Shown: positions 1,315-47,986 of the stretch, piece by piece
Position numbering within the stretch: position 1 is the first letter of the stretch
Layout: the number at the start of each line of letters is the position of its first letter
Assembly (NCBI GenBank): GCA_964623185.1
Contig: CAZUTD010000001.1
Coordinates: forward strand, 1 to 47,986
Length of the DNA stretch: 47,986 bases
Direction of reading: 5' to 3'
Source of the DNA: an uncultured Clostridiaceae bacterium
GTDB taxonomy: Bacteria > Bacillota > Clostridia > Peptostreptococcales > Natronincolaceae
Program-made: the position numbers and the translations under genes
The notes under the pieces: generated by a model
Databases searched by the model: none
Seen by the model: only the letters and a program-made list of their open reading frames with translations
Told to the model about the DNA's origin: nothing

Positions 1315-1471
1315 ATAGTTATCCCGTATAGTCAAATTCTCCTCTGCCCCGGATATATCCTCAGCATCAGAACATTCGTTGACTCAAGATGATTCACTCT
1401 CACCCTCAAGCAATATACTCTTAGGATCAAGTTCAATATAAAATGTAATATTTAGTTATATTCTTTATTCC

Positions 1472-1500
1472 ATAATATATCAGCAGCCATATACTGTCAA
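1472..1500 (-). promoter_or_regulatory. SigA-type promoter upstream of the hydF leader
   Basis: On the minus strand: TTGACA (1495..1500), 17-nt spacer, TATTAT (1472..1477). It lies between the stop of the 220-aa gene (1535) and the hydF leader. Confidence 0.6.
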
Positions 1501-1534
1501 TATCTTTTCCGTAAATTCGTTAAAAACTTAACTC

Positions 1535-2182
1535 CTAATCTTCTACCCCCCTCATTTTACATTTAAGATTTCCGCATTTTTCACATGTATGACGCTTGTA
1601 GCTTTTTTTCGAGTAATTAGTTGTCGCATACAAGAATCCCATCGATTTCAAGGGTTGGAATACAAATTTGTCATTGAGATTTATGCCCAACTTCACCAAT
1701 TCCAACCTTTCCCATAAAACCCCTTGGTAATGAAATGGAATTCCTTCATCCCCGGGTATTATCTTATTACCCAAATATATGCCTAACTCACGCATTTCTT
1801 TAAATATTTTTTGACAAAGTTCTTCCCCCATACTAAATAGTAAATCATTGGCCATAATATCTAAAACCAGAGCCTGCAAATAATGTCCCTGGTTAAATAA
1901 TTCCTCACATTTTGTCCCTATCTTCCCTCCCAAACTTATAAAACTATATACCACCACACTAGAATCATTTAGTAAATTTATTTTTAACTCTTCCTGCTTA
2001 TTTTCAAATTTCCATACCCCGATTGGCTCATTCAGCTTCTCTATAATGGGCAATAACTTGTCAAATAAATGATTGACCTTTTCATAAATACTGGTTTCTT
2101 TGGCACAATCCATTGCGGATAATACCTTGTCCCTATCAATATCAAGCAAAAATTCTTTTTCTATTCTTATCTCTTTCCCCAT
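1535..2182 (-). CDS. Methionine-synthase (MetH) activation-domain-like protein with C-terminal CxxCx4C cluster
   Basis: ORF 1535..2197 starts at a GTG. The ATG at 2182 (MGKEIR) lies 7 nt after GGGAG/GGAGA and is preferred. The pattern IPGDEGIPFHYQ...LGINLNDKFVFQPLKSMGFLY resembles the SPGYGD..Q...LGI.L....P.KS core of standalone Met_synt_B12-type proteins of Clostridia. The C-terminus reads CEKCGNLKC. Family assignment is from memory only. Confidence 0.45.
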   Translation of the reverse strand: MGKEIRIEKEFLLDIDRDKVLSAMDCAKETSIYEKVNHLFDKLLPIIEKLNEPIGVWKFENKQEELKINLLNDSSVVVYSFISLGGKIGTKCEELFNQGHYLQALVLDIMANDLLFSMGEELCQKIFKEMRELGIYLGNKIIPGDEGIPFHYQGVLWERLELVKLGINLNDKFVFQPLKSMGFLYATTNYSKKSYKRHTCEKCGNLKCKMRGVED

Positions 2183-2223
2183 ATGTTTTTCTCCCACCCA
2201 TATCTTATCTGTTGCTTGGACTC

Positions 2224-2252
2224 ATTATAACATTTAACTCCAATATTAAAAA
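2224..2252 (-). promoter_or_regulatory. Putative extended -10 promoter for the 220-aa gene
   Basis: The minus strand reads TGTTATAAT (extended -10, hexamer at 2224..2229). The -35 is weak: TTTTTA, 17 nt upstream. Confidence 0.4.
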
Positions 2253-2295
2253 CAGGCTCCCACTATTAAAGGACAACCTGTTTTCTGACATTTTG

Positions 2296-2715
2296 TTATT
2301 TTAATTTTTTAGCCTCTTCTATTAATAAAGCATCTTCCTGATTTTGAGCTTTAGGTTCTTCTAGATAATGGGGTATTTTCTTGCCATTACCATCAACTGT
2401 TACAAAGGTAATAAAGCCATCCACAACAACTTTTTCTTCCCCTTCCCTCGATACAGCAGCGTAGGCAGTTATACTTGTAGTCCCAGTTAAAACCACCTTG
2501 GATGCAACAGCCAGGATATCCCCCTTATTTAAAGGTTCTCTAAATCGCATTCCGTGAATTTTTACACAGACTATACTTTCAGAATTCCCATATGTAGCTG
2601 CGGCAGCAACAAAACATGCCTCTGTAAACCATTCAGCCATTCTACCGGCAAACAGTGTACCGTGGTGGTTTAAATCCTCTCCCTTAATAAGATGTGCTAA
2701 TTTAAAAGTCTTCAA
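2296..2715 (-). CDS. Acyl-CoA thioesterase, hotdog fold (YciA/BFIT-like)
   Basis: 139 aa. The DLNHHGTLFAGRMAEWFTEA motif is typical of acyl-CoA hydrolases. TTG start at 2715 lies 7 nt after GGAGG. Confidence 0.75.
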   Translation of the reverse strand: MKTFKLAHLIKGEDLNHHGTLFAGRMAEWFTEACFVAAAATYGNSESIVCVKIHGMRFREPLNKGDILAVASKVVLTGTTSITAYAAVSREGEEKVVVDGFITFVTVDGNGKKIPHYLEEPKAQNQEDALLIEEAKKLK

Positions 2716-2759
2716 CTTACTTCCTCCTTATGTAATTTATCATTTTGCATATGTAATAC

Positions 2760-2789
2760 ATTATACAAGCTTAATATAGATTATTGCAA
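2760..2789 (-). promoter_or_regulatory. SigA-type promoter for the thioesterase gene
   Basis: On the minus strand: TTGCAA (2784..2789), 18-nt spacer, TATAAT (2760..2765). Confidence 0.55.
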
Positions 2790-2961
2790 GTTATGACATG
2801 TATTTTGATAAAACTTTTTACTAAATCCCATTTCGTGAATAAAGCCTAATAATCGCTGCCAATACTATATACAATATGATATATTCCCCTTAATAGCGAT
2901 AATTAAACATTTGCCAAAGGGTACAATGTCTAAGTTTGCATATTATGACGAATTGCTTCCC

Positions 2962-2990
2962 TGTACCCAAACCCAAATTTGTGTTATAAT
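2962..2990 (+). promoter_or_regulatory. Putative extended -10 promoter for the 181-aa membrane protein gene
   Basis: TGTTATAAT at 2982..2990. The -35 is weak: TGTACC, 17 nt upstream. About 60 nt to the ATG at 3052. Confidence 0.45.
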
Positions 2991-3051
2991 TCTTTTATTC
3001 CATCTTTTTTATGTTTACGAAAATTAGCTAGAGTTTGGGGGTTTTGCTTAT

Positions 3052-3597
3052 ATGAGTAAGGTTGAAAATAAATATTCTTATCCTTCCCTGGTAAAAATAT
3101 ATAAAATATCTATGATTTCTTTATCCCTTGCTATTGTTTTTATATCTATATGGGATTTAGCTTTCAGTATTAATGAAAGCACCATTACCATAATTGCTAG
3201 ACTTGACTGGATTATATGGAGTGTATTTATTCTCGACTTAATTATTAATTTAATAATAGTGGAAGATAAAAAAAGGCATATAAAAATCAGCTTAATCGAA
3301 ATAGCAGTAGTGACTCCATTTGCAGTTTTTTTAAAACTTCCTGTTTATCTAAGGTCATCCAAGTTAATCCAAAAAACGGGTGTCCTTGCAAATCCTGTGG
3401 TAGTTACACCTGGCAAAACATCTCAAGAGGTGATTAATAAAATCAATTTATTGTTATCACAAAAATTTATTATACGGTCTTTTGCTTTTATTATGAAACC
3501 AAATGTTATCAGAATCTCAAAATTTATTAACCTTTCTGGAAGTTATTTTAGAAAAACAAAGAATTCAAAAACAGATGAAGATAAAAATAATTCTTAA
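3052..3597 (+). CDS. Small integral membrane protein resembling an isolated ion-transport / voltage-sensor-like N-terminal module (no pore region)
   Basis: 181 aa with 3-4 hydrophobic helices. The stretch DWIIWSVFILDLIINLII..KKRHIK.SLIEIAVVTPF resembles the S2-S3 pattern of bacterial K+ channel N-termini. No TVGYG-like selectivity filter is present. RBS GGGGG lies upstream. Confidence 0.35.
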   Translation: MSKVENKYSYPSLVKIYKISMISLSLAIVFISIWDLAFSINESTITIIARLDWIIWSVFILDLIINLIIVEDKKRHIKISLIEIAVVTPFAVFLKLPVYLRSSKLIQKTGVLANPVVVTPGKTSQEVINKINLLLSQKFIIRSFAFIMKPNVIRISKFINLSGSYFRKTKNSKTDEDKNNS

Positions 3598-3604
3598 ATC
3601 AAAT

Positions 3605-3650
3605 AAATCCACCCTTAAAATATATGAAGGTGGATTTAAATTTGATTTTT
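3605..3650. terminator. Bidirectional intrinsic terminator between convergent genes
   Basis: AAATCCACC (3605..3613) pairs with GGTGGATTT (3629..3637), with a 15-nt loop. T-rich tracts follow on both strands. Confidence 0.6.
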
Positions 3651-6600
3651 TATTCTTCTGTTACCGCTTTCTTTTGTCCCCTCAACCTTGCCTTTAGCTT
3701 ATATGAAAAATCATCAATAATTGTGTACACAACAGGAATTACAACTAGGGTTAAAAGGGTTGATAGAATTAATCCCGAAATAACAACCGTAGCCATAGGG
3801 GCTTGCACTTCTGCTCCCTCACCTATTCCAATAGCCAGGGGTACTAAGCCCAAGATAGTAGTTAAGGTGGTCATGAGTATAGGCCTTAATCTAACAGGGC
3901 CAGCCCTTACTACAGCCTCATCCCTATCCATGCCAGATTTTCTTAGGTAGTTAATATAATCCACCAATACAATCCCGTTGTTTACTACGATACCAGCCAA
4001 AATTATAACCCCTATCATTGATGGTACATTTATAGTTCTCCTAGTAATAAAGAGGCCGAAAAGTCCGCCTGAAAATGCTAAAGGTACTGATAAAATAATA
4101 GTAAACGGATGAACCAGAGATTCAAATTGTGCAGCCATAACCATGTAAATAAGAACTATTGCCAATAAAAGTGCCAAGAAAAGGTCGTAAATAGCATCAT
4201 TTAATTCTTCATTTTGTCCGCCGAATTCATAAGAGTATCCTTGAGGCATATTATATGCCTTTAATGACTTATCTATATCATCCGCTATACCCCTTAAATC
4301 CCTGCCGGATATTTGACCTGAAACAGTTACAATCCTTTGCTGTCCTTCACGAATAATTTGGATAGGACCCCTTTCTACATGAATACTGGCAATTTCATTT
4401 AGAGGAATTGTCCCACCCACCATGGTTGGAATCCCAATTTGCTCCAAATTGGTTAGACTCTCGGTTACAGAGTCATCACCCCTGACGACAACATCTATTT
4501 CATTACCTTCATATTTATACCTTGTAGCCGTTACACCTGAAGCAACACTTCTTATGGTATTGGCAATCTGTGCCGTGGTTAACCCATAGCTTGCTGCCTG
4601 GTATTTATTAACAAGGACCTGAACCTCCGGAGTGGCTTCGCTAAAACTCGTGCCTACTTCCCTAGTCCCCTCTACTTTTTCAATTAATTCTTTGAAATCT
4701 GAAGCGATTTCCTCTAAGGTTTCGAGTTCATCTCCCCTGATACCTATGCTAATGGGGTCTCCCCCTAATCCCATCATCATCATGGAGGATTCAACAACTG
4801 TAATTTCAGTACCAGGAATATCCCTAACAAGTTTTCTAATTTCATCAGAAATAGCCTTTGCATTTCTCTTTCTTTGTGATAAGGGTTTAAGACCTATATT
4901 TATATAGCCTTTACTACTTTCGCTACCACCCATCGACATCATTCCGCCAGACCCAATGGATGAAAATACAATGTCTGCCTCCTCAATTCCAGAAATCTTT
5001 TCCTCTACCTCTAATATAATGTCATTGGTTTCATGTAGTTCAGAGCCCGCCGGCAATGAAACATTTACCGTTATCTGTCCCTCATCGGTTGACGGGAAAA
5101 ACTCTGCACCTACGAAGAAGGCAGATACCATACTGCCCAAAAACACTAGTCCAGCTATAAGCAGAACTCTTTTTCTATAATTTAAACTCCAAGCTAAAAT
5201 TTCTCTATATTTATTATCGATGCTGGTAAGTCCCTTATCAAAAGCATCATATATAAGATCAATTTTTCTTTTTTTCCTGTCCTCTTCCTGGTCACCTGTA
5301 TAGCTTACTTTTAGGATTTTAGAAGATAACATGGGAATCAGTGTTATGGCCACTACCAAGGATGCAACCAGGGATAGGGTAACTGTCATTGCCAGTTCTT
5401 TAAAGATGGTAGAAACCATACCCCCAACAAAGACTATGGGTATAAAAACAGCAATTGTTGTAAGTGTAGATGCTGTTACCGCCATGGACACTTCTGATGC
5501 CCCAAGAATTGCAGCCTCTATCCTAGGATGCCCCTCGGACCTTAAGCGATAAATATTTTCCAAAACAACAATAGCATTGTCAACCAGCATACCCACTCCC
5601 AGCGCCAACCCACCCAAAGTCATTAGGTTCAAGGTTATATCACTGAAATACAATAAAATAAAAGTTGCTATTATTGAGATTGGAATCGAAGTCCCAATAA
5701 TTAAAGTAGTCCTGATATTCCTTAGGAACAAATATAAAATTCCAATCGCTAATAGGGCGCCAAAAATTGCATTTTTGAATACATTTTCAATTGCGTGGTT
5801 TATAAAAGTAGATTGATCAAAGACTGTCTCTATTTCAATATCTGGAAAATCACTTTTTAATTTGACTATCTCCTTATTAACTAAATTTGCCACCTGTACT
5901 GTGTTAACGCCCGATTGTTTTTGTATGGAGATATTTATGCTTTCCTTATCATTAACCCTAAAAATACTGTTGATTTCCTTGGGCGCCATTTTCACCTCGG
6001 CAATATCCTTAAGTTGTATAATTCCACCCGTAGCCAATGGGATAGGCATTTCCTGTATTTCCTCTACGGATTTAAATTCTCCCATTGTTCTGATAGCCAG
6101 TTCTTGGATACCCCTATCCACTGTTCCTCCTGGTAAGTTTAGGTTTGCGGCACCAATTAATTGAGATAATTGATTGATATCAAGACCATGGTTTTCTAGT
6201 AAAGATTCATTTACCTTTATCTGGACCTGGTTGGTATATCCTCCGAATATATCGGCAGAGGCAACCCCTTCTATCCTCTCTAATCTTGACTGAATTGTGT
6301 CCTCAGCCAAGGTTTGCAGGGAAGCTAAATCTCCCCCATGTGTTAGGGATAACTGTATGATAGGGGTAGAGTTGGGGTCGATTTTCAAAACCATAGGTTC
6401 AGATGCATCTTCTGGTAGCATCCCCTTTATTAAATCAACTTTTTCTCTCATTTCCAAAGTTGCAAAATCCATATCTGTTCCAAAGTTAAATAAAGCAATA
6501 ACAATAGAATTCCCCTGGGCCGATATGGAATTAATCGTGTCAATATTGCCAACAGTTGCTATAGCACCCTCTAGGGGGCGGGTTATAAGATTTTCCATCT

Positions 6601-6772
6601 CATAAGGTCCAACCCCTGAATAAGAGGTGCTTACGATAGCTACAGGCACTTCTATCTTTGGCAGTAAATCCAGGGGTAATCGGGTCAAAGAAATCGTCCC
6701 CAAGAGCACAATGACTAGCATTAGCATTGCAATAGTTACGGGACGCTCAACTGCTAATTTTGATAAGTTCAT
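3650..6772 (-). CDS. RND efflux transporter, AcrB/AcrD/AcrF (HAE1) family inner-membrane pump
   Basis: 1040 aa with the typical 12-TM plus two large loop domain layout. The N-terminus MNLSKLAVERPVTIAMLMLVIVLLG and the motif GLALGVGMLVDNAIVVLENI are hallmarks of the AcrB family. The start is 2 nt after the adaptor gene stop, which suggests translational coupling. Confidence 0.9.
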   Translation of the reverse strand: MNLSKLAVERPVTIAMLMLVIVLLGTISLTRLPLDLLPKIEVPVAIVSTSYSGVGPYEMENLITRPLEGAIATVGNIDTINSISAQGNSIVIALFNFGTDMDFATLEMREKVDLIKGMLPEDASEPMVLKIDPNSTPIIQLSLTHGGDLASLQTLAEDTIQSRLERIEGVASADIFGGYTNQVQIKVNESLLENHGLDINQLSQLIGAANLNLPGGTVDRGIQELAIRTMGEFKSVEEIQEMPIPLATGGIIQLKDIAEVKMAPKEINSIFRVNDKESINISIQKQSGVNTVQVANLVNKEIVKLKSDFPDIEIETVFDQSTFINHAIENVFKNAIFGALLAIGILYLFLRNIRTTLIIGTSIPISIIATFILLYFSDITLNLMTLGGLALGVGMLVDNAIVVLENIYRLRSEGHPRIEAAILGASEVSMAVTASTLTTIAVFIPIVFVGGMVSTIFKELAMTVTLSLVASLVVAITLIPMLSSKILKVSYTGDQEEDRKKRKIDLIYDAFDKGLTSIDNKYREILAWSLNYRKRVLLIAGLVFLGSMVSAFFVGAEFFPSTDEGQITVNVSLPAGSELHETNDIILEVEEKISGIEEADIVFSSIGSGGMMSMGGSESSKGYINIGLKPLSQRKRNAKAISDEIRKLVRDIPGTEITVVESSMMMMGLGGDPISIGIRGDELETLEEIASDFKELIEKVEGTREVGTSFSEATPEVQVLVNKYQAASYGLTTAQIANTIRSVASGVTATRYKYEGNEIDVVVRGDDSVTESLTNLEQIGIPTMVGGTIPLNEIASIHVERGPIQIIREGQQRIVTVSGQISGRDLRGIADDIDKSLKAYNMPQGYSYEFGGQNEELNDAIYDLFLALLLAIVLIYMVMAAQFESLVHPFTIILSVPLAFSGGLFGLFITRRTINVPSMIGVIILAGIVVNNGIVLVDYINYLRKSGMDRDEAVVRAGPVRLRPILMTTLTTILGLVPLAIGIGEGAEVQAPMATVVISGLILSTLLTLVVIPVVYTIIDDFSYKLKARLRGQKKAVTEE

Positions 6773-6774
6773 TA

Positions 6775-7983
6775 TTATTCACCCCTTACTACTTTCACCT
6801 GTTGTCCATTGGTTATATAATGTTGTCCCTTGATAATTACAATATCCCCTTCCTTTAAACCCTTCTCAACTTCAACATATAGACCAGTATCCAATCCTAG
6901 AACTATTTCTCTTTGGATTGCTTTATCATCTTCCACAATATAAACAAAGGTTTTCCCCTCATTTTCAATAATGCTACCCCTCTGAACAGCCAATATACCC
7001 TCACGGCTTTCTATATCTAACTCAATACTCCCACTCATACCGGGTTTTATCCTATGTTCTTCATTGGGTAGATAGACTTTTATTAAATATAATTGGTTTC
7101 TTTGATCAGGTGTTGGACTAATGTAGTCAATATATCCCTCAATTTCACTTTGACCATAAGCCGCTTCAATAGTTACCCTTACCTTTTGCCCCTTATACAG
7201 GCTATTTACAATCTTTTCGGAGATGTTTGCCTGTAGAAAAATCTCGTCCATATCGACAACCGTTGCCGCTGGCTGGGCATTAGAAACTAGTTCTCCTTCG
7301 ATTACATTCAAATTATTGACTATCCCAGAGATTGGTGCCTTAACCATGGTGTTATCAAAATTGCTTTCCACCTGTCCATAGCTGCTTTTTGCCTGTCTTA
7401 ATTGATCCAAGGCCTGTTCATGGGCTATTTCAGCTTGTAAGACCTGCATTTCTACAGTTTCCAAAGGTTTTAATGATGCTGCTAATTCCGCCTGCTCCAA
7501 CTGTGATTTTGATACTGCCCCTGCTTCATAAAGAGCTTGTGTTCTTTCCAAGTTTATTAATGCATTATCTATCTTTTCTTTTACCGAATCATATTGAATT
7601 TGGGCGGTTTTAACTCCATTTTCCGCTTGTTGAACAGCCTTTGCTGCTAAATCCAGACCCGCACCAGCCTGCTCAAGCGCCCTATTGACATCTTTTTGAT
7701 CCACAATAAATAAGACATCATCTTTTTCAACTTCATCACCAAGTTTTACACTGATTTTTGAAACGCTACCAGGTACCTGAGGAATAACCATAACTTCCTC
7801 ATTTGCAAACACCTTACCATTTAAAGTAATAAGCTTGGCAATGTTATCCTTCTTCAGAGTCTTTATTTCCACCGGCACATAGTTTTCCTCTTGGTTTACC
7901 GTTTCCTGTGAATTTTGACTGCATCCAACTGTTAAAACAATTATAAATAGTAATAATAGTGCAAATACCTTTTTTCTACCCAT
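6775..7983 (-). CDS. RND efflux periplasmic adaptor (membrane-fusion protein, HlyD/AcrA family), lipoprotein
   Basis: 402 aa. Signal peptide with lipobox LTVGC. Lipoyl/biotinyl-like hairpin, coiled-coil and beta-barrel pattern. AGGAGG lies 7 nt before the ATG. Confidence 0.88.
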   Translation of the reverse strand: MGRKKVFALLLLFIIVLTVGCSQNSQETVNQEENYVPVEIKTLKKDNIAKLITLNGKVFANEEVMVIPQVPGSVSKISVKLGDEVEKDDVLFIVDQKDVNRALEQAGAGLDLAAKAVQQAENGVKTAQIQYDSVKEKIDNALINLERTQALYEAGAVSKSQLEQAELAASLKPLETVEMQVLQAEIAHEQALDQLRQAKSSYGQVESNFDNTMVKAPISGIVNNLNVIEGELVSNAQPAATVVDMDEIFLQANISEKIVNSLYKGQKVRVTIEAAYGQSEIEGYIDYISPTPDQRNQLYLIKVYLPNEEHRIKPGMSGSIELDIESREGILAVQRGSIIENEGKTFVYIVEDDKAIQREIVLGLDTGLYVEVEKGLKEGDIVIIKGQHYITNGQQVKVVRGE

Positions 7984-8029
7984 CCCTCTTCCTCCTAGAA
8001 TTCACTTTTCAGGTCAAAAAATAAACTTC

Positions 8030-8500
8030 TTACTCCTGGCATAGGTCTACTAATTCTCCGCCCGTTATTTCCAAAAGTTCTTCTACAGTCACAGGTACCG
8101 CCGTATTAGCAGTACCGGCAGCAGCATAAACAAGATCAAACCTTTCCATGCTTTTGTCTATGAGAATTCTTATAGGATTCTTTAAGGCAAAGGGGCAAAC
8201 CCCACCCGGATGAAATCCTGTAATTTCCATACATTCTTCAGGTTTTGCAAGTTTAGGCTTAGCCCCTAATATCTTTTTTAAGGGTCCATTTTTTACCCTT
8301 ACATCACCACTGGTAACTACCAGGGCTTTTTCCTCCTTAGCTATAAACAAAATTGATTTTGCGATTTGTCCTACGGTTACGCCCAACTGGTCTGCAGCCA
8401 TTTGTGCAGTTTTAGTTGTTCCATCTTCAAATTCAATAACCTCTAATTCTATTGGTAAAGTTTCTAAATAATCCTTTACCCTTGCTAATGTAGATTCCAT
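8030..8500 (-). CDS. ybaK: YbaK/EbsC/ProX-family aminoacyl-tRNA deacylase (trans-editing domain)
   Basis: 156 aa. KSILF with the conserved Lys and GGVCPF near the C-terminal half are typical of the YbaK/ProX fold. It lies 46 nt upstream of the adaptor gene on the same strand. Confidence 0.75.
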   Translation of the reverse strand: MESTLARVKDYLETLPIELEVIEFEDGTTKTAQMAADQLGVTVGQIAKSILFIAKEEKALVVTSGDVRVKNGPLKKILGAKPKLAKPEECMEITGFHPGGVCPFALKNPIRILIDKSMERFDLVYAAAGTANTAVPVTVEELLEITGGELVDLCQE

Positions 8501-8670
8501 AACACTTACATCTCCTTCTGATATTACTTTTTATTGTGACCACTATATTTGAATAAGGACTTCACCTGTCAGTTAACATTCTTGGTGGGTAATTCCTACT
8601 TCCCCTGCAAATAAACACTTAACATGCAAAGAAGTCCCATTAAAATTGCGGACATAATATTTCTATGACC

Positions 8671-8700
8671 ATATTATCATAGAATATGGCCCAATAGCAA
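8671..8700 (-). promoter_or_regulatory. Putative extended -10 promoter with overlapping palindrome upstream of ybaK-RND
   Basis: On the minus strand: TTGCTA (8695..8700), 18-nt spacer, TGATAATAT (8671..8679). The palindrome CCATATT-N7-AATATGG (8669..8689) overlaps the -10 and the spacer. Confidence 0.4.
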
Positions 8701-8725
8701 TATATCAGTTTTTATCAAAAGTATT

Positions 8726-8774
8726 AGATAAAAAATAACACCTTCTCGATACTTATATATCTTAAAAGTGTTAT
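8726..8774 (-). terminator. Putative intrinsic terminator after the GAF-like gene
   Basis: A 9-bp stem with one bulge: ATAACAC(C)TT at 8735..8744 pairs with AAGTGTTAT at 8766..8774. On the minus strand it is followed by TTTTT. The loop is large (21 nt). Confidence 0.4.
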
Positions 8775-8802
8775 ATATTTACAATATCATATTATTATTA
8801 TT

Positions 8803-12313: not shown

Positions 12314-12528
12314 TATTTTGTAAATTGTTTAGTAACTTTACTATTCGACATTATATTTATTATCCCTTCATATTTTTGGAATTTTCAATGTTATATTTCA
12401 AATTTTGTGTCCTTTTTTCGTATTTACTGCCCTTTTAAATAAACCCATTAATTGTAATGCCTTTCTTTGTTTTTTATTTGCACAAATTGTATTATAATGT
12501 AGATTAATGAGAGGTATTTTTATTATGG

Positions 12529-13125
12529 ATGGTGATAAGTATGGGATATAAATTACAAGAAATGAAAAAAATTATAACAAGTTTAGATAACAACCAGCCA
12601 CAAGCCTTAAAAATCAAATTATTGCAGGACTTGATTGAATCTGCAACCGCCTATAAGAAACAACTAATAAACCTATCTAGCCCAGCACAAGTGCAAACAA
12701 ATATAAATAGTTTGGATGTAAACCTTAGGAAGATTTCGGAAGAAAAGTTTTTATGTAAATCCGTCCAAGTTAAAAATTATTACGAAGGTGATTATTTAGA
12801 AAGATTTTCAGAAATAAGAACATCCGATTTAAAATCTTGCGACGCCTTTGAAGTACATAATAAATTTTGGCAGGCCCATGAGGTTTTTGGTGGCAATATC
12901 TTTGCATCTATTCCCCTTGCACTTATCGACCACCAACAATCCACCGCCTTACAAGGATTAAATTGGCTACCTGTCCTAGTCGACATATACGAAATTACAA
13001 ATGAATTTGATTCTAAAATTACCAGGGGCCAAATTATTAGCTCTGTTGCTAATATTTTTAACCACCATCTGCTGGTTAGGGAAGTTTATGGAGACCTTCT
13101 TATGTTATTGCATTACACCCAATAA
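12529..13125 (+). CDS. Hypothetical protein (198 aa), no recognisable domain
   Basis: Lone plus-strand ORF between two minus-strand operons. A TATAAT lies at 12493..12498 upstream. Start is uncertain between 12529 and 12541. Confidence 0.5.
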   Translation: MVISMGYKLQEMKKIITSLDNNQPQALKIKLLQDLIESATAYKKQLINLSSPAQVQTNINSLDVNLRKISEEKFLCKSVQVKNYYEGDYLERFSEIRTSDLKSCDAFEVHNKFWQAHEVFGGNIFASIPLALIDHQQSTALQGLNWLPVLVDIYEITNEFDSKITRGQIISSVANIFNHHLLVREVYGDLLMLLHYTQ

Positions 13126-39000: not shown

Positions 39001-42000
39001 GCTTTATATCCAAGTAGTTAATTTCCACCTGACTTCTGGTAATAGCCAATTGAAAAGCCCTGTCTATAGCACTGCTGTCACCATATTTTTTAACAAGGGA
39101 AATTACCTTTTCCTTCGTTTTTTCAATCCCTATTGTAAAATAGACAATTACTGATTGTCCGGGCGATACTTTCATTGTCTTTTTCAAGCTCATAATTGGA
39201 TCCAATACAATTCCCACACTTCCGCCTAAGGGTTTTGTTAGGGCAACCGCATTACTAATATCCCTGCCCCTACCAATAAAAGCCTCCCTATTGCTTTCAT
39301 ATTGCAATCCACCCATCGTTTCACCCTCAACAGCCACCCTATGAAAAATCCATTTAGCTTCCTTGCCATTTTCCCTGGATCTTCTGGAAGCGATAAGGGC
39401 ATTTTCCTCTGGCAAGACCTCAGTCCTTACAAAAAGATTGCTAAAAGCAGGATGGGCTAAATCTGCATTTTGATGAGTGAGCACTATTTCAAAATAACTA
39501 GTAACTTCTATATTTGCTAATTCCTCCCCATGATTAGTCAATCTTATCTTTCTGATTTCCACATTATCTTCAGGCGATACAACAATTTCTGTGTGTGTAT
39601 CAATATCCTCATCCTTGCGAAAAAACTCCGCCTTATCCTGCGAAAAATTAACCCTATAGCTATCTGCTTGCTGATAAAAAGGTGCTACCCCGGTTGACCA
39701 TATCCTGTTTTTATTAAGATGGTTAATAAAGATATAAATCCCGTCTTTGCCTGTTATTGCATCTTGTCGCCATCTGCTAATTTGAATATCCCGGATTTTA
39801 CTATAACCGGTTCCCCAATTAGTTAGCATGAGCGAGTAGTTTCCATTTGATAAAAGATGACATTGAGCTAGGGGTCCCTCCCATCCACCATATGTTCTTA
39901 CCACTTTTTCAGTTTCAAACTTTTCCTTTGCCTTTCCCGACGAACATATCCCTTCCTTATATTGTTTTGTAATAATTATTCTTGTAGGGATTCTTTCTTG
40001 TAACAAGGTTTCACCTGCCCGTATTACTGGGTCCTTGTGAAAACGTTTTTGCATAATATTTTTATTGAAAAAATTGTTCAGGGAAACAAAAATCATCCCC
40101 TGATGATGAGCCATGAAGCTTTTCACAATTTCAAACTTTTCCTCGCTAACCATAGCCCTTGGCATATAATCAATAGCCTCATAAAGCCCATATTGTCCCT
40201 CTGCACCTGTTTGAATGAGGGCTAGGATATTATCCATTGCATCCCTAGGCCTAAAAGGTAGGGCTAAAAATGTGGAATAGGCCGATATGACCAAATCCTT
40301 TGATAGGCCCCTTTTCAGTCCTAAGTCTGGAATACCAAAGGCTTTATACTGATAATTCAATGCCATGTCAAAAGAATAGTAGCCAGATTCAGAAATTCCC
40401 CATGGAATATTTTTGTTTTGACAGTATGTTTTCTGTGCTTTTATCGTGGTGGAATAAGTTTCATCCATAAGCCCATTATCATAATTTTTCATTATTAAGT
40501 AGGGCATAAAATATTCAAACATTGTACCTGTCCAGGATACAAGGCTCCTGCTACCGTCTATAAGGGTCATAGTCCTCCCTAATTTAAACCAATGTTTTTG
40601 AGGAACTTCCCTTCTAGCTATGGCTATATAACTAGCTGTTCTTGCCTCAGAGGCTAGTAAATCATAATAAGAGTTAGTAAGCCTCTCTTCATCCATATTA
40701 TAACCGATAGAGAATAGGTGTCTTTTAGGATCATATAGGTGGATAAATTCCGTAGCCTCCACAATATCATCCATTGACTTAATTACCTTATTTATTTTAC
40801 CTATTAATCCATCAATATTATTAATTTTCTGTAATAATTCCTTTTCCAGGTCCTCGTTACCTGCTTGTCTCAATTCCCCTAATATTTCTTTATAAATTAT
40901 TTTTAACTCTGATAAAGATTTATCCTCTAGGTCAAGCTGATACTTATCTATTATGATGGGTTTTGTAATAAAAAAACCTTCTACTTCCCTGCAAATAATA
41001 TCTGCCATATCATAAAACCTACGTTCCCATCCGCAATAGGCATCAAGATCTTTTTGTCTATTTTTAATATGGTGACTGATGTCCATTAATTGATCCACTA
41101 TGGATTTTTCCTGGCATAGGCACCCATATAAATCATCCATGATTATTCCATCATTATCCTCCAATAATATAAGGGTATCCCTTAGACCCATTAGAATTTC
41201 CTTTCCAATCAAGGGTCTCTTTAAATATTCCTTTAAACCCTCCCTAGCTGTAATAATATAGCTAATAAAATTCCCACTATCCACAGTTGAAATATAATAT
41301 GGCCTTAGGATTTCTAATGTAAGGGTATCATACCAATTAAACAAATGCCCCTTCCATTTTTCCATCTTTCCTATAGTTGTAATTGTTTTTTCAATTCTTT
41401 TTACCATTTCACTTGTTGATAAATAGCCAAAATCTCTTGCCGATAAAACCGATATGATATAGATTCCAATATTGGTTGGAGAGGTTCTTTGGGCAAGTAG
41501 GTCCTTGGGTATAAGCTGATAATTATCAGGGGGCAAATTATTACTTTCATCCCCAACAAAATCTTCATAATAAGCCCAAGTTTTTCTTCCAATCTTACGG
41601 AGCAGCTCTAGTTCATATTTTTGCAGTTTATGGTCCCCTTTCCTTGTTTCCTTGCTTATATTGAAAGCAACAAAAGGACCCATACCCCATAAGAATGCAA
41701 TGGGTATTGTATAGAAAAAATTATAAGGTTTCAAAGTAAATGTTGAAATTAGTAAAATTGCGGTAATGATAAAACTGCTTTGCATCCTAATGGCAAAACT
41801 CTTAAAATCATCCGTTAGATTTCTTTCTACATCAGCAGCCGTTGTCCATTCCAAAAGATTGTCTTTTGATATAAGGATACGATATAGGGTTCTCAAAATA
41901 GCATCTGCCATCATGTAGGCCTCATAGGGCAGAAATATGAAATCTAATACTACCCTGTAAAATGCAGCCTTGACCTCTGCCACCAGGTCTCCTTTGACCC

Positions 42001-44542
42001 TATCATTTTGTCTCATGTAATACCTATCTTTTAAATAATATAGCAAATTAATAAGCAGGGGGAATCCCATGATTATTATTCCCAGCCCTAACCAGAAAAT
42101 CGCCTGACCTGGAAACACCGTTAAGGCAAAAATAAACAATAAAAGCAGGGATATTGGCACTAGGCTCCGCCGCATATTATCTAAAATATGCCATCGTGCT
42201 AAAATTGGTAAAGGATTGTTTCTGCTTGGAAACAACCATCTTATTAATTGCCAATCCCCCCTTACCCATCTATGAAGCCTAAGCATATAGGCGCTATATT
42301 TAGACGGATAATCGTCTATTAGTTCGAAATCCTCGGCTAATCCCGTTCTAAGATAACTTCCTTCTAATAAATCATGACTTAAGACCCTGTTTTCTGGTAT
42401 TGCATTCTTTAAAAGCCTATTAAAAAGCTCCACATCATAAATTCCCTTGCCCGTAAAAATACCCCTGCCAAATAAATCTTGATAAATGTCTGAGTTAGCT
42501 ATAGTATACGAGTCAACCCCGCCCCTACCAGCAAAGGTTCTGGTGAAAAACGACCTATTTGCACTTTCTATGTTAACCCCGATTCTGGGTTGTATTAATC
42601 CATACCCTTCAATTACCACACCTTTCTTCTCATCTATAATTGGCCTATTTAAGGGATGGGAAGCAATTCCAATTAATTTTTTCGCTGTATCCATAGGCAA
42701 TTGGGTGTCGGCATCTATAGTTAAAATATATTTTACGAATTTTAATTTTGTAATATCCCCTGAGAGAATGGAATAGGATGTTGATTCCTCGCCTAAAATT
42801 AACTGATTTAGCTCAACCAAGGCACCCCTTTTTCTTTCCCAACCCAGCCATTTATTTTGTTTTTGGCATAATTTCCTCTCCCTATGAAAATAATAGAAAA
42901 TTTCCTTTCCATATTTCCTGTTTAAATTTTTTACCCCTTCCATTACTATATTGACAATTTCATTGTCTTCCGGCATTTCCTTGGTGTTAGCATCCTTAAA
43001 ATCTCCTGCTAAGGCAAAATATAGGTTTTCTTCCAAATTGGCAAGATAAAAAACCTCTAATTGCCCCAAAATCTCCTTACCCCTTTGTCCGTCGGGAAGC
43101 AAAACAGGTACTACTACTAGGCTGCTTACCTCCTCAGGAATACCATTCCTGTACTCAATCCTGGGCAGAAAGCTTGGGGGAAATAAGTTTGTTAACAATG
43201 AATTAGTCAAGCTAACTGCCAAATCACTGGCAGAAATTAAAACAAGCAAACTAATTAAAGCCAATATTATCCCACTTGTTTCATTATGGAAACTTACTCC
43301 ATAGGAAAGAGATAGCCAGAAAATAAGTATTGTAAATAGGGTAATGGGGATGAAATATATGGCTAAGGATTGTTTCTGAAGGAAATCCCTCTTATCAGGG
43401 TGATCTAAGGCCTCAAAAAGTTCTTTTCTACCCTTATCAACCAGATAATATCCCACATGGCATTTTCTTTCATCCTCCTTCTTATCTTTTGCTAGCTGGC
43501 TTTGTTCAATAGCTTTTCTAGCCACTCTTGTTTCCGCTTCTTTTAATTTACGACCTATCTTCTCAACATGATTCCGATAATAATCCCTAGAATCAAAATC
43601 CAATTGGGAGTAGATATGGCCAGGATCCTTGTTTAAAATTTCCTCCACAATACTGAGACTTTCAAAAATATCATTCCAATCCAGGCTTGCTACCTTATTT
43701 AAACTTGTTATAGAATTTCCTATAGATATTTTTGCCTTTGCTTGGGTTTGATGCTCCTCCTCAACCAAGTCCCCAATTGTTGTATTATAATCTCTTAATT
43801 TTTTCTGCAAATAATTCAAAACTACTTCTGCCTCAATTTCATTCCTTTTCAATACCTTCAACAAATGTTCCACATAGGTAGAATTTGCCCTGCCATCTAA
43901 TTCTATATTTGCTTTTATAGCTAACAAAATTTCCTCTTCTGGTAATTCCGCTGCCTTTTCAGCTTTTTCCCTTTCGCAATAAGAATAATATATCTTCTCA
44001 CAAATTCTCCGGATATTTTCGATTAATGCTGTCCGAATCATCAGTGAAAGTGCCCATATTTCAGCTATTGTCAAGACTCTTTGGCATTGGTACGCTTTTA
44101 CATAACTAATTAACAAATCCTCGTCTAGATTCCCATCAGTATGGGCAACAAATTCTAGGGCCACCCCATAAATTCTAGGATACCCCCTAAGAACACCAGT
44201 ATTTAAGGTATTTAATCTTAGAAATTTCTCCTTTAACAAATTTTGTCTTACCTCTTTGGCCTGTTCCTCTACCTTGTAGAAGTTGTCTAATAACCATTCG
44301 GATGCTGGACATAGGTGTCCTTTATGGTTTATAGCATCATGAAAATTTGCATATACCAGGGTAATAATTTTAAAATTTTGATCAATTCTTTTCAAAAGTT
44401 GACGCAAGGAAAAACTATCGGAAAATACAGTATGATTTTTAGCAATTTCCCTGGCATGATGAACTAGTTCCTCAGAAGTTAGTAAGAGATTTTTTAAATC
44501 CATTCCTTGTTGTTTCCCATTTCTGCCCTTGTTAAGAAACAT
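36056..44542 (-). CDS. Cyclic beta-1,2-glucan synthase-like giant protein (copy 2)
   Basis: Identical translation to 13225..21744. Preferred ATG at 44542; the ORF track extends to 44575. Confidence 0.85.
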   Translation of the reverse strand: MFLNKGRNGKQQGMDLKNLLLTSEELVHHAREIAKNHTVFSDSFSLRQLLKRIDQNFKIITLVYANFHDAINHKGHLCPASEWLLDNFYKVEEQAKEVRQNLLKEKFLRLNTLNTGVLRGYPRIYGVALEFVAHTDGNLDEDLLISYVKAYQCQRVLTIAEIWALSLMIRTALIENIRRICEKIYYSYCEREKAEKAAELPEEEILLAIKANIELDGRANSTYVEHLLKVLKRNEIEAEVVLNYLQKKLRDYNTTIGDLVEEEHQTQAKAKISIGNSITSLNKVASLDWNDIFESLSIVEEILNKDPGHIYSQLDFDSRDYYRNHVEKIGRKLKEAETRVARKAIEQSQLAKDKKEDERKCHVGYYLVDKGRKELFEALDHPDKRDFLQKQSLAIYFIPITLFTILIFWLSLSYGVSFHNETSGIILALISLLVLISASDLAVSLTNSLLTNLFPPSFLPRIEYRNGIPEEVSSLVVVPVLLPDGQRGKEILGQLEVFYLANLEENLYFALAGDFKDANTKEMPEDNEIVNIVMEGVKNLNRKYGKEIFYYFHRERKLCQKQNKWLGWERKRGALVELNQLILGEESTSYSILSGDITKLKFVKYILTIDADTQLPMDTAKKLIGIASHPLNRPIIDEKKGVVIEGYGLIQPRIGVNIESANRSFFTRTFAGRGGVDSYTIANSDIYQDLFGRGIFTGKGIYDVELFNRLLKNAIPENRVLSHDLLEGSYLRTGLAEDFELIDDYPSKYSAYMLRLHRWVRGDWQLIRWLFPSRNNPLPILARWHILDNMRRSLVPISLLLLFIFALTVFPGQAIFWLGLGIIIMGFPLLINLLYYLKDRYYMRQNDRVKGDLVAEVKAAFYRVVLDFIFLPYEAYMMADAILRTLYRILISKDNLLEWTTAADVERNLTDDFKSFAIRMQSSFIITAILLISTFTLKPYNFFYTIPIAFLWGMGPFVAFNISKETRKGDHKLQKYELELLRKIGRKTWAYYEDFVGDESNNLPPDNYQLIPKDLLAQRTSPTNIGIYIISVLSARDFGYLSTSEMVKRIEKTITTIGKMEKWKGHLFNWYDTLTLEILRPYYISTVDSGNFISYIITAREGLKEYLKRPLIGKEILMGLRDTLILLEDNDGIIMDDLYGCLCQEKSIVDQLMDISHHIKNRQKDLDAYCGWERRFYDMADIICREVEGFFITKPIIIDKYQLDLEDKSLSELKIIYKEILGELRQAGNEDLEKELLQKINNIDGLIGKINKVIKSMDDIVEATEFIHLYDPKRHLFSIGYNMDEERLTNSYYDLLASEARTASYIAIARREVPQKHWFKLGRTMTLIDGSRSLVSWTGTMFEYFMPYLIMKNYDNGLMDETYSTTIKAQKTYCQNKNIPWGISESGYYSFDMALNYQYKAFGIPDLGLKRGLSKDLVISAYSTFLALPFRPRDAMDNILALIQTGAEGQYGLYEAIDYMPRAMVSEEKFEIVKSFMAHHQGMIFVSLNNFFNKNIMQKRFHKDPVIRAGETLLQERIPTRIIITKQYKEGICSSGKAKEKFETEKVVRTYGGWEGPLAQCHLLSNGNYSLMLTNWGTGYSKIRDIQISRWRQDAITGKDGIYIFINHLNKNRIWSTGVAPFYQQADSYRVNFSQDKAEFFRKDEDIDTHTEIVVSPEDNVEIRKIRLTNHGEELANIEVTSYFEIVLTHQNADLAHPAFSNLFVRTEVLPEENALIASRRSRENGKEAKWIFHRVAVEGETMGGLQYESNREAFIGRGRDISNAVALTKPLGGSVGIVLDPIMSLKKTMKVSPGQSVIVYFTIGIEKTKEKVISLVKKYGDSSAIDRAFQLAITRSQVEINYLDIKPSELKLYQDMIAQIIYLNPLRRKYEDILKANNKSQSGLWAYGISGDLPIVLISIKNTEDIGVVKQFIKAHEYWRLRGLSVDLLILNEDASNYFQPLHHLIQDVVSSGQGKHIMDQPGGIFIKNVSNMPLEDKNLLYTVARLVVRAEEGFLSKQIEMKEEDLFEDKIFDKAGKQYSIKEDVLELEYDNGYGGFSKDGKEYIIQLKDDISTPAPWINVVANKEFGFIISERGSSFTWAENSRENRLTPWSNDYVGDPSGEIIYIRDEDTGETWSPTGQPIRSKATYTIGHGLGYSRFLHKGNGIDQQLTVYVAKEDSIKINLLKLKNPGKEKRNLSLIYFIRPVMGISDEITQQYIVTDLDKQGRGILIRNPYNADFKGRIGFVSTSEKIHSFTCDRREFVGIQGNMEKPAGLKREKFSNSFGAGYDPCVALQVNLEIQGQEEKELVFLLGQGQNFDQVDKMISYYREMDNCTNALNEIRDYWLGLVATIQVETPDLSMNLMLNQWLIYQSICCRIWARSAFYQSGGAYGYRDQLQDAMNMVYPSPEITREQILLNCAHQFVEGDVQHWWHPGAGDKGIRTRFSDDLLWLPYAVVEYLEITEDYSILEEEVGFLEEEPLREDEDERYGIPRISQEKASVYEHCLRSIERGLKFGQHGIPLMGSGDWNDGMNTVGNKGKGESVWLGWFMYSILMDFAKLCRKMGEEDRANRYVNHARGIGQAIEKNAWDGGWYIRAFFDDGSPLGSASNTECKIDSLAQSWSIISQGGNKERSIKAMQAVEEYLIKKNEGLILLFTPPFDKGDQNPGYIKGYVPGVRENGGQYTHAATWVIKAFSMLGDGDKAWELFNLINPINHSRTPLECATYKLEPYVMAADVYAVNPHIGRGGWSWYTGVSGWMYRVGIKDILGLKKKGDKLIIDPCIPKDWKEYKVSYRYLSTLYNITVKNPDGVNNMVKKIILDDKPILGKYIPLIDDKKDHKVEVIM

Positions 44543-44582
44543 ATGTATTTTTCCTCCTTGTAGTAAAAAAGTCAAAACAAAA

Positions 44583-47066
44583 TTATTTCTGACTTTTTAA
44601 TAATTTTTTGATCTTTTCCTTGTAAAATACCGATAACTCCTCTGCATATTCCTCAGAGAAACCTTCAGTGTAGATATTGAACAAAGGTTTTGCACTATCC
44701 GGCAGGATTAAGGTCCAACCCCTTTTATCTTTGATTTTAACACCTTCGAACAATTCTATATCTGTGGGTAAATATTCTTGTGCAAGCTGTTGGATAATCC
44801 GGCCCTTATCCTGCCACTCACAGGATATCTTATCCTTTATAAAATAAAATTTTGGTATCTCCTTAAGCAGGTCCTCTAGCTTTATACTATTTCTAGTGAG
44901 AAAATCCACTATCATACCCAGACCCCATATAGCATGATAAGTCAAGATATATTGTGATAAACCTTTTTGTTTACCTTCTTCAACCATGGTCATACCATTC
45001 ATAACACTTGCTGGACTAGATTTTACCCGTATTATTTCAACCCCATAAGCTTGGGCAATTTTTTCGATACCGCTGGGTGCATTATAGGCTAATACAAGTT
45101 TTCCCTTATAGCCCTCTTTTAATAAAAGCATAATCGTTAAGATATCAAACTTTTCATCTTTGATAATATCCCCATTTTGAGTAATTAAAGCCATCTCTTC
45201 CCCATTTTCATTAATTATTACACCAAAATCTGCCGCCTTTTCCCCCGTTTTTTGGGCTATAATTTCCAAATAATCCTTCATGGGAATTTCAGTAAGACTA
45301 TCATGTATTATCTCTACATTACACCCAATCCTCTTAAGAAATTGTCCACCCAATTCCTGTATTAAGCTTGATTTTGAACTAATTATAATTAAGGGGGACT
45401 TCCTCTTTATTGCCGGAATATCCATTAGAAAATCCATCCCATTATTTATATAAAACTCTTGGAAGTTCTCTATATTGAGGCTGGATTGGATGTCCTCCGC
45501 CTTACACCGTTTAAATTCTTCCCTATTAAACAGATTTTCTATTTCCCTTTCTGCTGACCGTTGGATATTAACCCCCTTTTCATCTGCAAACTCGATATGG
45601 ACCAAATTCCTATCCATCTTGTCCATTCTTATATGTATTCCACCACTGCCATTAAAATGTTCAATTGCAAAACGATTAACCGGCATGACTGTTTTTCCGA
45701 TATCAATTATCCCAGAACCAGAAGATCTCATCCCCACTACCAAAGCGTTCTTAATAATCTTGCTAGCATTTGAAGCATCCGAACTAACTATTATGGTAGG
45801 TTTACCCTTGAGTGTGGAAACAAATGCTGCACCCAATTTAGATGCAAATTCAGGACTGACATCAATATTCATTTCGCCAGAAACACCCTTAAAACCAAAA
45901 ATATTTTTACATGCCTTTGTTCCCCAAACCAGGTTTTCATTGACAATAGTTTTTTCCTCTATCCACTTTTCCGGCCAGATTTTAATATTGGGCTTTATGA
46001 TAACGCCCTCATCTAATCTGCTGTCATCCCCGATTACTGCATTTTCATAAATTTCTACATCCTTGCTTATTTTTACATTCTTACAAATTACTCCACCACG
46101 GCAATCTGCATTTTGTCCCACAACTACATTATTCCAAATAACTGACCTTTTTAAAGACACCCCTTTTCCTATACTGCAACCGTCCCCTATCACCGTATAA
46201 GCTTCTATTTTACTTCCCCCACGAATTATACAGTCCTCCCCAATATATACCGGTGGTTGAAAACTAACATTTCTGTCAATTTGTGTTCCATTTCCAACCC
46301 ATACTCCTTTCTCTATCTCGTGACCCGATAATTGAAAATCTACTTTACGGTCTAATAAATCAAAATGAGTTTGGACATAGGAGTCTAGAGCACCTACATC
46401 GCACCAATAATCATTAGTAATATAACCATACATTGCTACCCCATCTGCTAATAATTTTGGAAAGAGATCCTTGCTAAAGTCAAAGTTTTCTCCCCGTTTA
46501 AAATAATCCAAAACTTCTGGTTCCAAAACATAGATACCGGTATTTATCGTATTGCTAAAGACCTCACCCCAACTAGGTTTTTCCAAAAATCTTCTTATAT
46601 TACCATCCTTATTAATAATAACAACCCCATATTCTACGGGATAAGCTTCATTTTTTAAAACAAGCGTAGCCTTAGAACCCTTACTTTTATGAAAATCTAC
46701 TGCTTTATCTATGTCTATATCTGTAATGGCATCTCCGCTCAATACAATAAAAGTTTTTTCTATAAAGTCCTCGGCATTTTTAACACTACCACCCGTACCC
46801 AGGGGAATATCCTCCTCAAAATATTTTATATTTACACCCCACTTTTCACCCTGACCAAAATAATCGATGATTTTGTTTGGAAGATGGGCAATTGTAACCC
46901 CAATATCGCTTATTTTATGTCTTTTTAGCAATTCTATAGTATATTCCATCGTGGGTTTATTAAGTATAGGCACCATAGGTTTGGGAATACAACAAGTAAG
47001 GGGCTTTAATCTCGTTCCTTTTCCTCCTGCCATAATAATTGCTTTTATAACAATCCCTCCATTCAT
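44583..47066 (-). CDS. Nucleotidyltransferase fused to a degenerate PGM/PMM-like domain (copy 2, retains the native upstream region)
   Basis: Identical translation to 21752..24235. The upstream sequence beyond 47089 is unique. Confidence 0.8.
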   Translation of the reverse strand: MNGGIVIKAIIMAGGKGTRLKPLTCCIPKPMVPILNKPTMEYTIELLKRHKISDIGVTIAHLPNKIIDYFGQGEKWGVNIKYFEEDIPLGTGGSVKNAEDFIEKTFIVLSGDAITDIDIDKAVDFHKSKGSKATLVLKNEAYPVEYGVVIINKDGNIRRFLEKPSWGEVFSNTINTGIYVLEPEVLDYFKRGENFDFSKDLFPKLLADGVAMYGYITNDYWCDVGALDSYVQTHFDLLDRKVDFQLSGHEIEKGVWVGNGTQIDRNVSFQPPVYIGEDCIIRGGSKIEAYTVIGDGCSIGKGVSLKRSVIWNNVVVGQNADCRGGVICKNVKISKDVEIYENAVIGDDSRLDEGVIIKPNIKIWPEKWIEEKTIVNENLVWGTKACKNIFGFKGVSGEMNIDVSPEFASKLGAAFVSTLKGKPTIIVSSDASNASKIIKNALVVGMRSSGSGIIDIGKTVMPVNRFAIEHFNGSGGIHIRMDKMDRNLVHIEFADEKGVNIQRSAEREIENLFNREEFKRCKAEDIQSSLNIENFQEFYINNGMDFLMDIPAIKRKSPLIIISSKSSLIQELGGQFLKRIGCNVEIIHDSLTEIPMKDYLEIIAQKTGEKAADFGVIINENGEEMALITQNGDIIKDEKFDILTIMLLLKEGYKGKLVLAYNAPSGIEKIAQAYGVEIIRVKSSPASVMNGMTMVEEGKQKGLSQYILTYHAIWGLGMIVDFLTRNSIKLEDLLKEIPKFYFIKDKISCEWQDKGRIIQQLAQEYLPTDIELFEGVKIKDKRGWTLILPDSAKPLFNIYTEGFSEEYAEELSVFYKEKIKKLLKSQK

Positions 47067-47316
47067 CCTACTTTTGCATCAATCTTTATTTTGTGAGAAT
47101 CTCGTATTTCTATACATAAAACAACTTAAATCTTCTTAATCAAAAAAGATCTAGCATCTCAACAAACATTTAAAAACATGTAATATTTATACTAAAATAA
47201 CAAGATATATATCAGGGAATTTTGACTAGCATTGGCTTCTTTTGGTGGGAATAATACTGAGGCTAGAAAAGAAAAGCCTTATTTTACCCGATTTTTGGGC
47301 TTTTGTCCATAACCCA

Positions 47317-47985: not shown

Positions 47986-47986
47986 A

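Follow-up and report, generated by a model that had tools for sequence, protein, structure and literature searches.

A perfect 22.8-kb tandem repeat in a metagenomic contig, its junction in raw reads, and its probable origin by chromosomal duplication

Here we describe a head-to-tail repeat of 22,831 nucleotides (nt) that takes up most of contig CAZUTD010000001.1 of GenBank assembly GCA_964623185.1, a stretch of 47,986 nt assigned to an uncultured Clostridiaceae bacterium and referred to below, at its full length, as the window. The repeated unit carries a set of genes that includes an RND efflux pump and an operon for cyclic glucan synthesis, and it lies between the genes hydF and yajQ. The junction between the two copies is present in the raw reads of a digester metagenome, SRR8925797, and was not invented by an assembler. 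Other strains of the same species have the unit once between the same two flanks. We consider it likely that the window records a real tandem duplication on the chromosome, present in a substantial share, at least, of a natural population.

Background

In Salmonella and E. coli, gene duplication-amplification (GDA) begins with a tandem duplication that has a short junction: sister chromosomes are joined illegitimately, and the long perfect repeat so formed then collapses or expands in a RecA-dependent manner (Reams & Roth; Sandegren & Andersson). Homology-independent duplications of this kind are a known entry to gene amplification and to new genes. The present one is a rare natural case from an uncultivated anaerobe in which a suspicious perfect repeat in a deposited contig can be checked against an unrelated read set. 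The case also illustrates that perfect identity plus microhomology is no evidence by itself, since assemblers and chance both yield them. It matters, too, to users of the genome, for whom the doubled RND pump and cyclic-glucan genes represent an event at the level of the strain or subpopulation, and not the gene content of the species.

Results

A perfect repeat with an effectively blunt join

When each base of the window is compared with the base 22,831 nt downstream, a single run of identity appears, in which 1426..24258 equals 24257..47089 over 22,833 nt with 0 mismatches; the next-longest run at this offset is 4 nt. The repeat unit is therefore 22,831 nt long and is repeated head to tail with no spacer, the 2 extra nt being an AT common to both parental boundaries, and the window is free of any N. 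This comparison in full bears out the perfect repeat that the initial annotation of the window had claimed, and the three boundary sequences given there read exactly as described, with only the AT shared. The left boundary is CTCTTAGG followed by ATCAAGTTC, the right boundary is CAATCTTTAT followed by TTTGTGAG, and the join is CAATCTTT followed by AT and then CAAGTTC. The parts of the window are as follows.

1..1425: left unique flank, with the first ~7 codons of hydG (which the left end of the window truncates), hydF, and most of the hydF leader; collinear with same-species contigs that continue into hydG and hydE
1426..24256: unit copy 1 (offset self-comparison)
24257..47087: unit copy 2, identical to copy 1 (offset self-comparison)
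24257..24258, also 1426-1427 and 47088-47089: the shared AT, at the join (offset self-comparison)
47088..47986: right unique flank, with the native upstream region of the glucan operon, then yajQ

Neither breakpoint interrupts an open reading frame (ORF). The right one lies 21 nt upstream of the ATG of a gene for a protein of 827 amino acids (aa), the first gene of the glucan operon, and the left one lies 109 nt downstream of a gene for a 215-aa protein; genes without a name are called below by the length of their product. Searches for protein domains, tRNAs, Rfam families and repeats agree with the earlier statement that no insertion sequence (IS), rRNA, tRNA, integrase or long repeat stands at the unit edges: no tRNA was found in the window, no Rfam family reached its gathering score in 1..25000, no repeat family connects the two edges of the unit, and no repeat longer than chance joins the breakpoints. 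We reject a repeat-mediated duplication, whether by IS, rrn or repetitive extragenic palindromic (REP) elements, because the direct repeats of tens of base pairs (bp) that it calls for at both endpoints are absent. Hairpin-promoted template switching was likewise rejected, there being no stable DNA hairpin at either breakpoint.

The shared AT had at first been read as a signature of microhomology. That reading is weak: of 200,000 pairs of breakpoints placed at random in this same sequence, 18.8% share 2 nt or more, and a match so common by chance is no evidence for a mechanism guided by microhomology. The join is effectively blunt and is best called homology-independent, which fits a RecA-independent origin without demonstrating one. 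Local alignment of the neighbourhoods of the two breakpoints (200 nt to either side) gives a best score of 26, where random pairs reach 21.6 ± 2.9. An exact 12-nt repeat, ATGTAATATTTA, occurs at 1443..1454, 24274..24285 and 47178..47189 and so stands near both parental breakpoints, at offsets of +17 and +90. We discarded it as a guide of the join, for it is out of register and no better than chance, with 8% of random pairs doing equally well.

The absence of any divergence had also been taken to mean that the duplication is very recent. The 0 mismatches stand, but they can date the event only where each copy was assembled without recourse to the other. When a graph assembler passes through a loop a second time, it necessarily repeats what it wrote the first time, in which case zero divergence comes from the walk and the copy number can be read only as "at least 2". 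In a contig put together from long reads, a count of 0 differences over 22,831 nt does point to a very recent duplication. A recent date is thus plausible but unproven.

The junction in raw reads

A look-up of the 215-aa protein led to a Logan contig of 1,524 nt, SRR8925797_266485 (L027), which equals window 24229..25752 base for base and so crosses the join. Its alignment to the single-copy reference halts exactly at base 1426 and leaves 28 bases unaligned. Those 28 bases, CATTCATCCTACTTTTGCATCAATCTTT, are the last 28 of the unit before the shared AT, after which come the AT and then the left end of the unit; one of the 31-mers across the junction is CATCAATCTTTATCAAGTTCAATATAAAATG. Logan is built with k=31 and discards k-mers seen once (PMC12424806), so the reads of SRR8925797 must contain each junction 31-mer two or more times. 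The contig also begins where a graph would be expected to cut it. Its start lies 28 + 2 = 30 bases, which is k-1, before the point at which the junction diverges from the wild-type right flank, and this is the expected branch node, from which the right end of the unit continues both into the DNA on the yajQ side and into the left end of the unit. A tandem array has exactly that branch topology. The doubt first raised over this region, that the repeat might be an assembly error, is answered at the level of the reads, since the 31-mers spanning the junction occur there and were not made by an assembler. A look-up of a 78-aa antisense ORF that spans the junction gave no match.

The two contigs that carry the junction come from different software. 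Contigs written by MEGAHIT are simple paths through the graph and cannot hold a unit twice. SRR8925797 is an Illumina metagenome of digestate from a survey of full-scale Chinese biogas plants (PRJNA533495), and the study behind it used MEGAHIT for its assembly (PMC7842101). Because MEGAHIT cannot write the unit twice, the window contig must have come from another pipeline, and because two unrelated pipelines agree on the join, a pure error of assembler or scaffolder is ruled out on this evidence. Such an error of assembler, scaffolder or merger would consist in two overlapping sequences of ~24 kb (1..24256 and 1426..25155 in single-copy coordinates) being concatenated instead of merged, and the contig has exactly the shape that this would produce, with a 2-nt overlap at the chance level. 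Since an unrelated pipeline, starting from raw reads, arrived at the identical junction, such an error is very improbable; it would be revived only if the assembled contig had found its way into the SRA run, which is implausible.

Presence in reads leaves room for a junction made in the library, by two fragments that were fused and then duplicated during the polymerase chain reaction, with no cell carrying the duplication. Logan requires only 2 occurrences of a k-mer, and a join with next to no homology is what random chimeras show. Against this, the chimera would have had to connect two points within one locus, in the same orientation and at intergenic sites, and then be taken up by a second assembler in building the window contig; it is excluded outright if the window contig stems from a different sample. 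We regard a chimera as improbable.

The unit is single copy in other strains

Relatives were collected by exact-protein look-ups in Logan and in ENA assemblies of metagenomes from biogas plants and anaerobic digesters. Look-ups with the starts of the longest ORFs (220 aa, 827 aa) gave no match in these collections, and matches came only with the starts chosen by gene callers. The same-species contigs found in this way are 96.4-99.7% identical to the window and come from at least 8 other digester metagenomes. Every contig that reaches a breakpoint crosses it uninterrupted, with a local identity of 99.5-100%: L001-L003 and L021-L026 on the left, L011-L015 on the right. In SRR13522557_360, three overlapping loci could be stitched without conflict into 30,015 nt, in which the unit stands once between yajQ and hydF, and no internal repeat is found in this stitched sequence. 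Since these contigs are collinear across both breakpoints and hold the unit once, we take hydF, unit, yajQ in single copy to be the ancestral state and the normal layout of the species, and the flanks of the window to be genuine chromosome. The comparison with related genomes thus comes out, in at least 8 samples, as a single-copy arrangement with the same flanks. The junction of a reciprocal deletion was absent from all fetched loci.

The unique flanks, hydF on the left and yajQ/DUF520 on the right, are as first annotated. A circular replicon read twice is rejected, because the two flanks differ and both are chromosomal in the relatives. A junction formed by an excised circle of 22.8 kb, mobile or episomal, in place of a chromosomal array has to be treated separately, for it would give the same junction and the same graph. 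The unit, however, has no integrase, recombinase, replication or transfer gene, no att-like or terminal repeats and no tRNA; its breakpoints cut a promoter-leader region and fall 21 nt from a start codon; it belongs to the syntenic core chromosome of every strain of the species; and a circle without a replicon could not reach a detectable abundance. An excised circle is accordingly extremely improbable.

The two copies differ in their upstream DNA

Nearly all genes of the window are on the minus strand, so that transcription runs from right to left. Candidate control signals are listed here.

1472..1500, minus strand: promoter-like TTGACA-17-TATTAT (11/12), the putative hydF promoter; inside the unit and hence duplicated
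24303..24331, minus strand: second copy of the putative hydF promoter; the ATG of the 827-aa gene in the left glucan operon follows 68 nt downstream
47345..47317, minus strand: promoter-like TTGACA-17-TATACT with a TG, in the native upstream region of the glucan operon
47309..47281, minus strand: second promoter-like site in the native upstream region of the glucan operon
1275..1314, minus strand: hairpin with a 13-bp stem (arms 1275-1287 and 1302-1314), followed by a T-run; it closely precedes the Shine-Dalgarno (SD) sequence and ATG of hydF and lies outside the unit

Promoter-like sites that match at 11/12 or better number three in 25 kb, against a random expectation of 1.4, and two of the three, correctly oriented, precede hydF and the glucan operon. 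The site at 1500..1472 is the only strong promoter-like site upstream of hydF in the ancestral layout. From it would run a hydF leader of ~220 nt (within window 1246..1500, minus strand), with a fold z-score of -2.07, and the left breakpoint cuts this leader ~40 nt after the predicted transcription start. The hairpin at 1275..1314 looks like a terminator or an attenuator. No Rfam family was found for the hydF leader or the breakpoint regions, the best hit being a meaningless match to SCARNA7 at E=0.05, and the leader may be an undescribed attenuator or riboswitch of the hydF-hydG-hydE maturase operon.

The genes of the unit had first been described as present in two intact copies. For the ORFs this holds, both breakpoints being intergenic; it does not hold for the DNA upstream of the left glucan operon, which is replaced after 21 nt. 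The right copy of the operon retains its native upstream region, 47088..47490, and the left copy retains only those 21 nt, beyond which lies the 3' neighbourhood of the copy-2 215-aa gene. The ATG at 24235 and a GGAGGG inside the 827-aa ORF are kept in both copies. On the motif matches above, the left glucan operon would have lost a native upstream region of ~250 nt with its promoter-like sites and gained a copy of the putative hydF promoter, and hydF itself would have kept its own promoter copy and leader. Since the terminator-like hairpin is outside the unit, nothing obvious stops read-through from the copy-2 139-aa and 215-aa genes into the left glucan operon. The two copies of the operon are probably regulated differently.

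Weighing the duplication against an assembler walk

Several observations tell against a duplication carried by a sizeable part of a population. The junction is carried by one independent contig from one run only, SRR8925797, and the window contig may itself have been built from that run. A 30-mer across the junction is absent from the GTDB species representatives, the JGI metagenomes and IMG/VR, and all other samples show the single-copy layout only. The contig is short, and its unique flanks of only 1.4 kb and 0.9 kb are an odd shape for a well-assembled region. An assembler walking a loop could have produced the copy number of exactly 2 as well as the zero divergence. As to the upstream regions, the promoter assignments are consensus matches only.

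In a rival reading, the junction would be real and the two-copy contig would be an assembler's walk through a minority variant, or through a population of mixed copy number (from 2 to many), with the identity of the copies arising by construction. A de Bruijn graph keeps each k-mer once, and a double pass through the collapsed unit gives identical copies, as is established assembler behaviour (PMC12424806). The small flanks and the wild-type state of all other samples go with this, as does the branch at the right end of the unit in SRR8925797, where the junction and the wild-type continuation coexist. But a tandem duplication in a single genome gives both continuations too, and the branch does not discriminate. 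At the left end of the unit, moreover, the low-coverage graph of SRR8925797 kept the path through the junction and not the path from hydF, which argues against a rare variant. We hold such a walk to be unlikely, though it has a real chance of being correct.

Our preferred explanation is the chromosomal duplication, which would have started from hydF, unit and yajQ in that order on the chromosome. A single illegitimate and homology-independent join would have connected the base 21 nt upstream of the 827-aa gene to the site 109 nt downstream of the 215-aa gene on the sister chromosome, and the product would be hydF, unit, unit, yajQ. Homologous recombination between the copies should then readily collapse or amplify the array, as in other such duplications, and the array would be expected to persist only through drift or a bottleneck, or through selection on the dosage or the rewired expression of some gene of the unit. 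Selection for dosage of the pump in particular is speculation. Should the window and SRR8925797 come from different digesters, a lineage bearing the duplication would be persisting and spreading in the wild, which would imply sustained selection; we put this forward as a possible but doubtful extension. If it were true, the selected trait could be the dosage of the RND pump, the dosage of cyclic glucan, or a glucan operon placed under the hydF promoter and freed from its native upstream DNA.

Comparison with known systems

Most likely, this is an ordinary homology-independent tandem duplication, of which the biology is already textbook and the instance is new. Like the short-junction duplications of GDA, it is arranged head to tail without a spacer, its endpoints share between none and a few nt, no IS or rrn element stands at its edges, its copies are identical, the unit is single copy in relatives, and it spans tens of kb with many unrelated genes. 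Unlike those of the laboratory, it was found in metagenomes of an uncultivated anaerobe and not after selection, and its independence of RecA and its instability are expected here from analogy.

The closest natural parallel among those compared is a 32-kb tandem duplication of the isd region in Staphylococcus lugdunensis HKU09-01, which is in the deposited genome of that strain and was confirmed by Southern blot (PMC5004866). It is lost in up to 45% of colonies unless recA is deleted, and it arose by recombination at a near-identical stretch of 19 nt within two ORFs, which left a hybrid gene (PMC5004866). The two cases are alike in that each belongs to a natural strain, measures about 30 kb, is independently confirmed, is single copy in a sister strain, and combines transporters with unrelated metabolic genes. 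They differ in that here 2 nt are shared, the breakpoints are intergenic, and the outcome is a fusion of promoter and operon instead of a hybrid ORF.

Tandem amplifications of efflux or resistance genes underlie heteroresistance (for example PMC12892994, PMC11846870). The present unit resembles them in holding an RND pump and its adaptor, for which an effect of dosage is conceivable; those amplifications differ from it in that they commonly arise through homologous recombination (PMC12892994) and are tied to a measured resistance phenotype. Finally, the window resembles the false duplications that assemblies acquire through over-traversed loops or unmerged overlaps, in its perfect identity, its arbitrary junction and a short contig that is nearly all repeat, and differs from them in that its junction is found among the raw-read k-mers of an independent pipeline.

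Gene content of the unit

The unit holds 11 genes, and all of its ORFs are doubled: the RND pump and its adaptor, a YbaK-like protein, a GAF-domain protein, a FapA-family protein, a thioesterase, three hypothetical proteins, and the two genes of the cyclic-glucan operon. First coordinates below are those of copy 1, and copy 2 lies at +22,831; the two flanking genes are included.

37..1245, minus strand: hydF, [FeFe]-hydrogenase maturation GTPase, 402 aa, left flank (Pfam HydF_tetramer 9.6e-46, HydF_dimer 6.3e-41; start checked)
1535..2182, copy 2 24366..25013, minus strand: hypothetical protein, 215 aa, with a Cys-rich C-terminus (no match in Pfam or NCBIfam)
2296..2715, copy 2 25127..25546, minus strand: thioesterase of the 4HBT fold, 139 aa (Pfam)
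3052..3597, copy 2 25883..26428, plus strand: hypothetical protein, hydrophobic and probably membrane-bound, 181 aa
3650..6772, copy 2 26481..29603, minus strand: RND efflux permease (AcrB family), 1040 aa (Pfam ACR_tran 1.3e-265; NCBIfam RND_permease_2)
6775..7983, copy 2 29606..30814, minus strand: RND membrane-fusion adaptor, 402 aa (Pfam, NCBIfam)
8030..8500, copy 2 30861..31331, minus strand: YbaK/tRNA_edit-domain protein, 156 aa (Pfam, NCBIfam)
8803..10617, copy 2 31634..33448, minus strand: GAF-domain protein, 604 aa as called in relatives (Pfam)
10634..12244, copy 2 33465..35075, minus strand: FapA-family protein, 536 aa (Pfam)
12541..13125, copy 2 35372..35956, plus strand: hypothetical protein, 194 aa
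13225..21744, copy 2 36056..44575, minus strand: cyclic beta-1,2-glucan synthase, ORF of 2839 aa (2827 aa called in relatives) (GH94 domains; PDB 8rf0/8rf9)
21752..24235, copy 2 44583..47066, minus strand: sugar-1-phosphate nucleotidyltransferase-phosphohexomutase fusion, 827 aa (Pfam, NCBIfam)
47491..47985, plus strand: yajQ/DUF520, right flank (Pfam)

The unit had initially been credited with 12 genes. The surplus likely comes from a 108-aa ORF at 3624..3950 on the plus strand (copy 2: 26455..26781), which is antisense to the 3' end of the RND pump gene, is called in no same-species contig, and is almost certainly spurious. Among the 11 unit proteins, Pfam and NCBIfam show no integrase, transposase, recombinase, replication or transfer domain.

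Over its full length, the 2839-aa ORF aligns with cyclic beta-1,2-glucan synthases of solved structure (PDB 8rf0/8rf9, 1914 bits). The 827-aa fusion protein likely supplies nucleoside diphosphate (NDP)-glucose to it, and the two genes probably form a self-contained cyclic-glucan operon in a low-GC digester bacterium. The closest match to the 827-aa protein among GTDB representatives is in Alkaliphilus pronyensis, at 53% amino-acid identity, and the host is probably an uncultivated, low-GC (~36%) member of the Clostridia living in anaerobic digesters. The 827-aa gene is annotated from an ATG with a poor SD sequence, and the GGAGGG inside the ORF lies 6 nt before an ATA codon (24202..24235, equal to 47033..47066, minus strand). 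A start at that ATA codon would yield a canonical nucleotidyltransferase N-terminus, MKAIIMAGGKGTRL, so the gene may truly begin at a non-canonical codon (ATA), or else 6 codons may have been annotated in excess.

Strain variation in and around the unit

The same-species contigs from the at least 8 samples have one common set of alleles, from which the window strain deviates only in patches. These lie at window 7000..12000 and 15000..24000 (and in the second copy), with 12-17 single-nucleotide polymorphisms (SNPs) per kb in the GAF and FapA genes and up to 74 SNPs per kb in the glucan synthase and 827-aa genes; outside them the differences are near zero. Judged by this pattern, the patches look like DNA imported from a diverged lineage by homologous recombination. 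The window's own allele of the 402-aa adaptor is on record on one NCBI contig only, which at 47,986 nt is as long as the window, and an exact look-up of this allele among the searched metagenome assemblies found no match; a 30-mer specific to its glucan synthase allele is absent from the JGI metagenome contigs. Beyond the right end of the window, four Logan contigs from four runs (L012-L015) break off ~1.9 kb beyond yajQ, their ends falling at two positions 15 nt apart within a small ORF, and the ENA contig NODE_591 continues through this point, which suggests a repeat or a strain-variable element ~1.9 kb to the right of yajQ.

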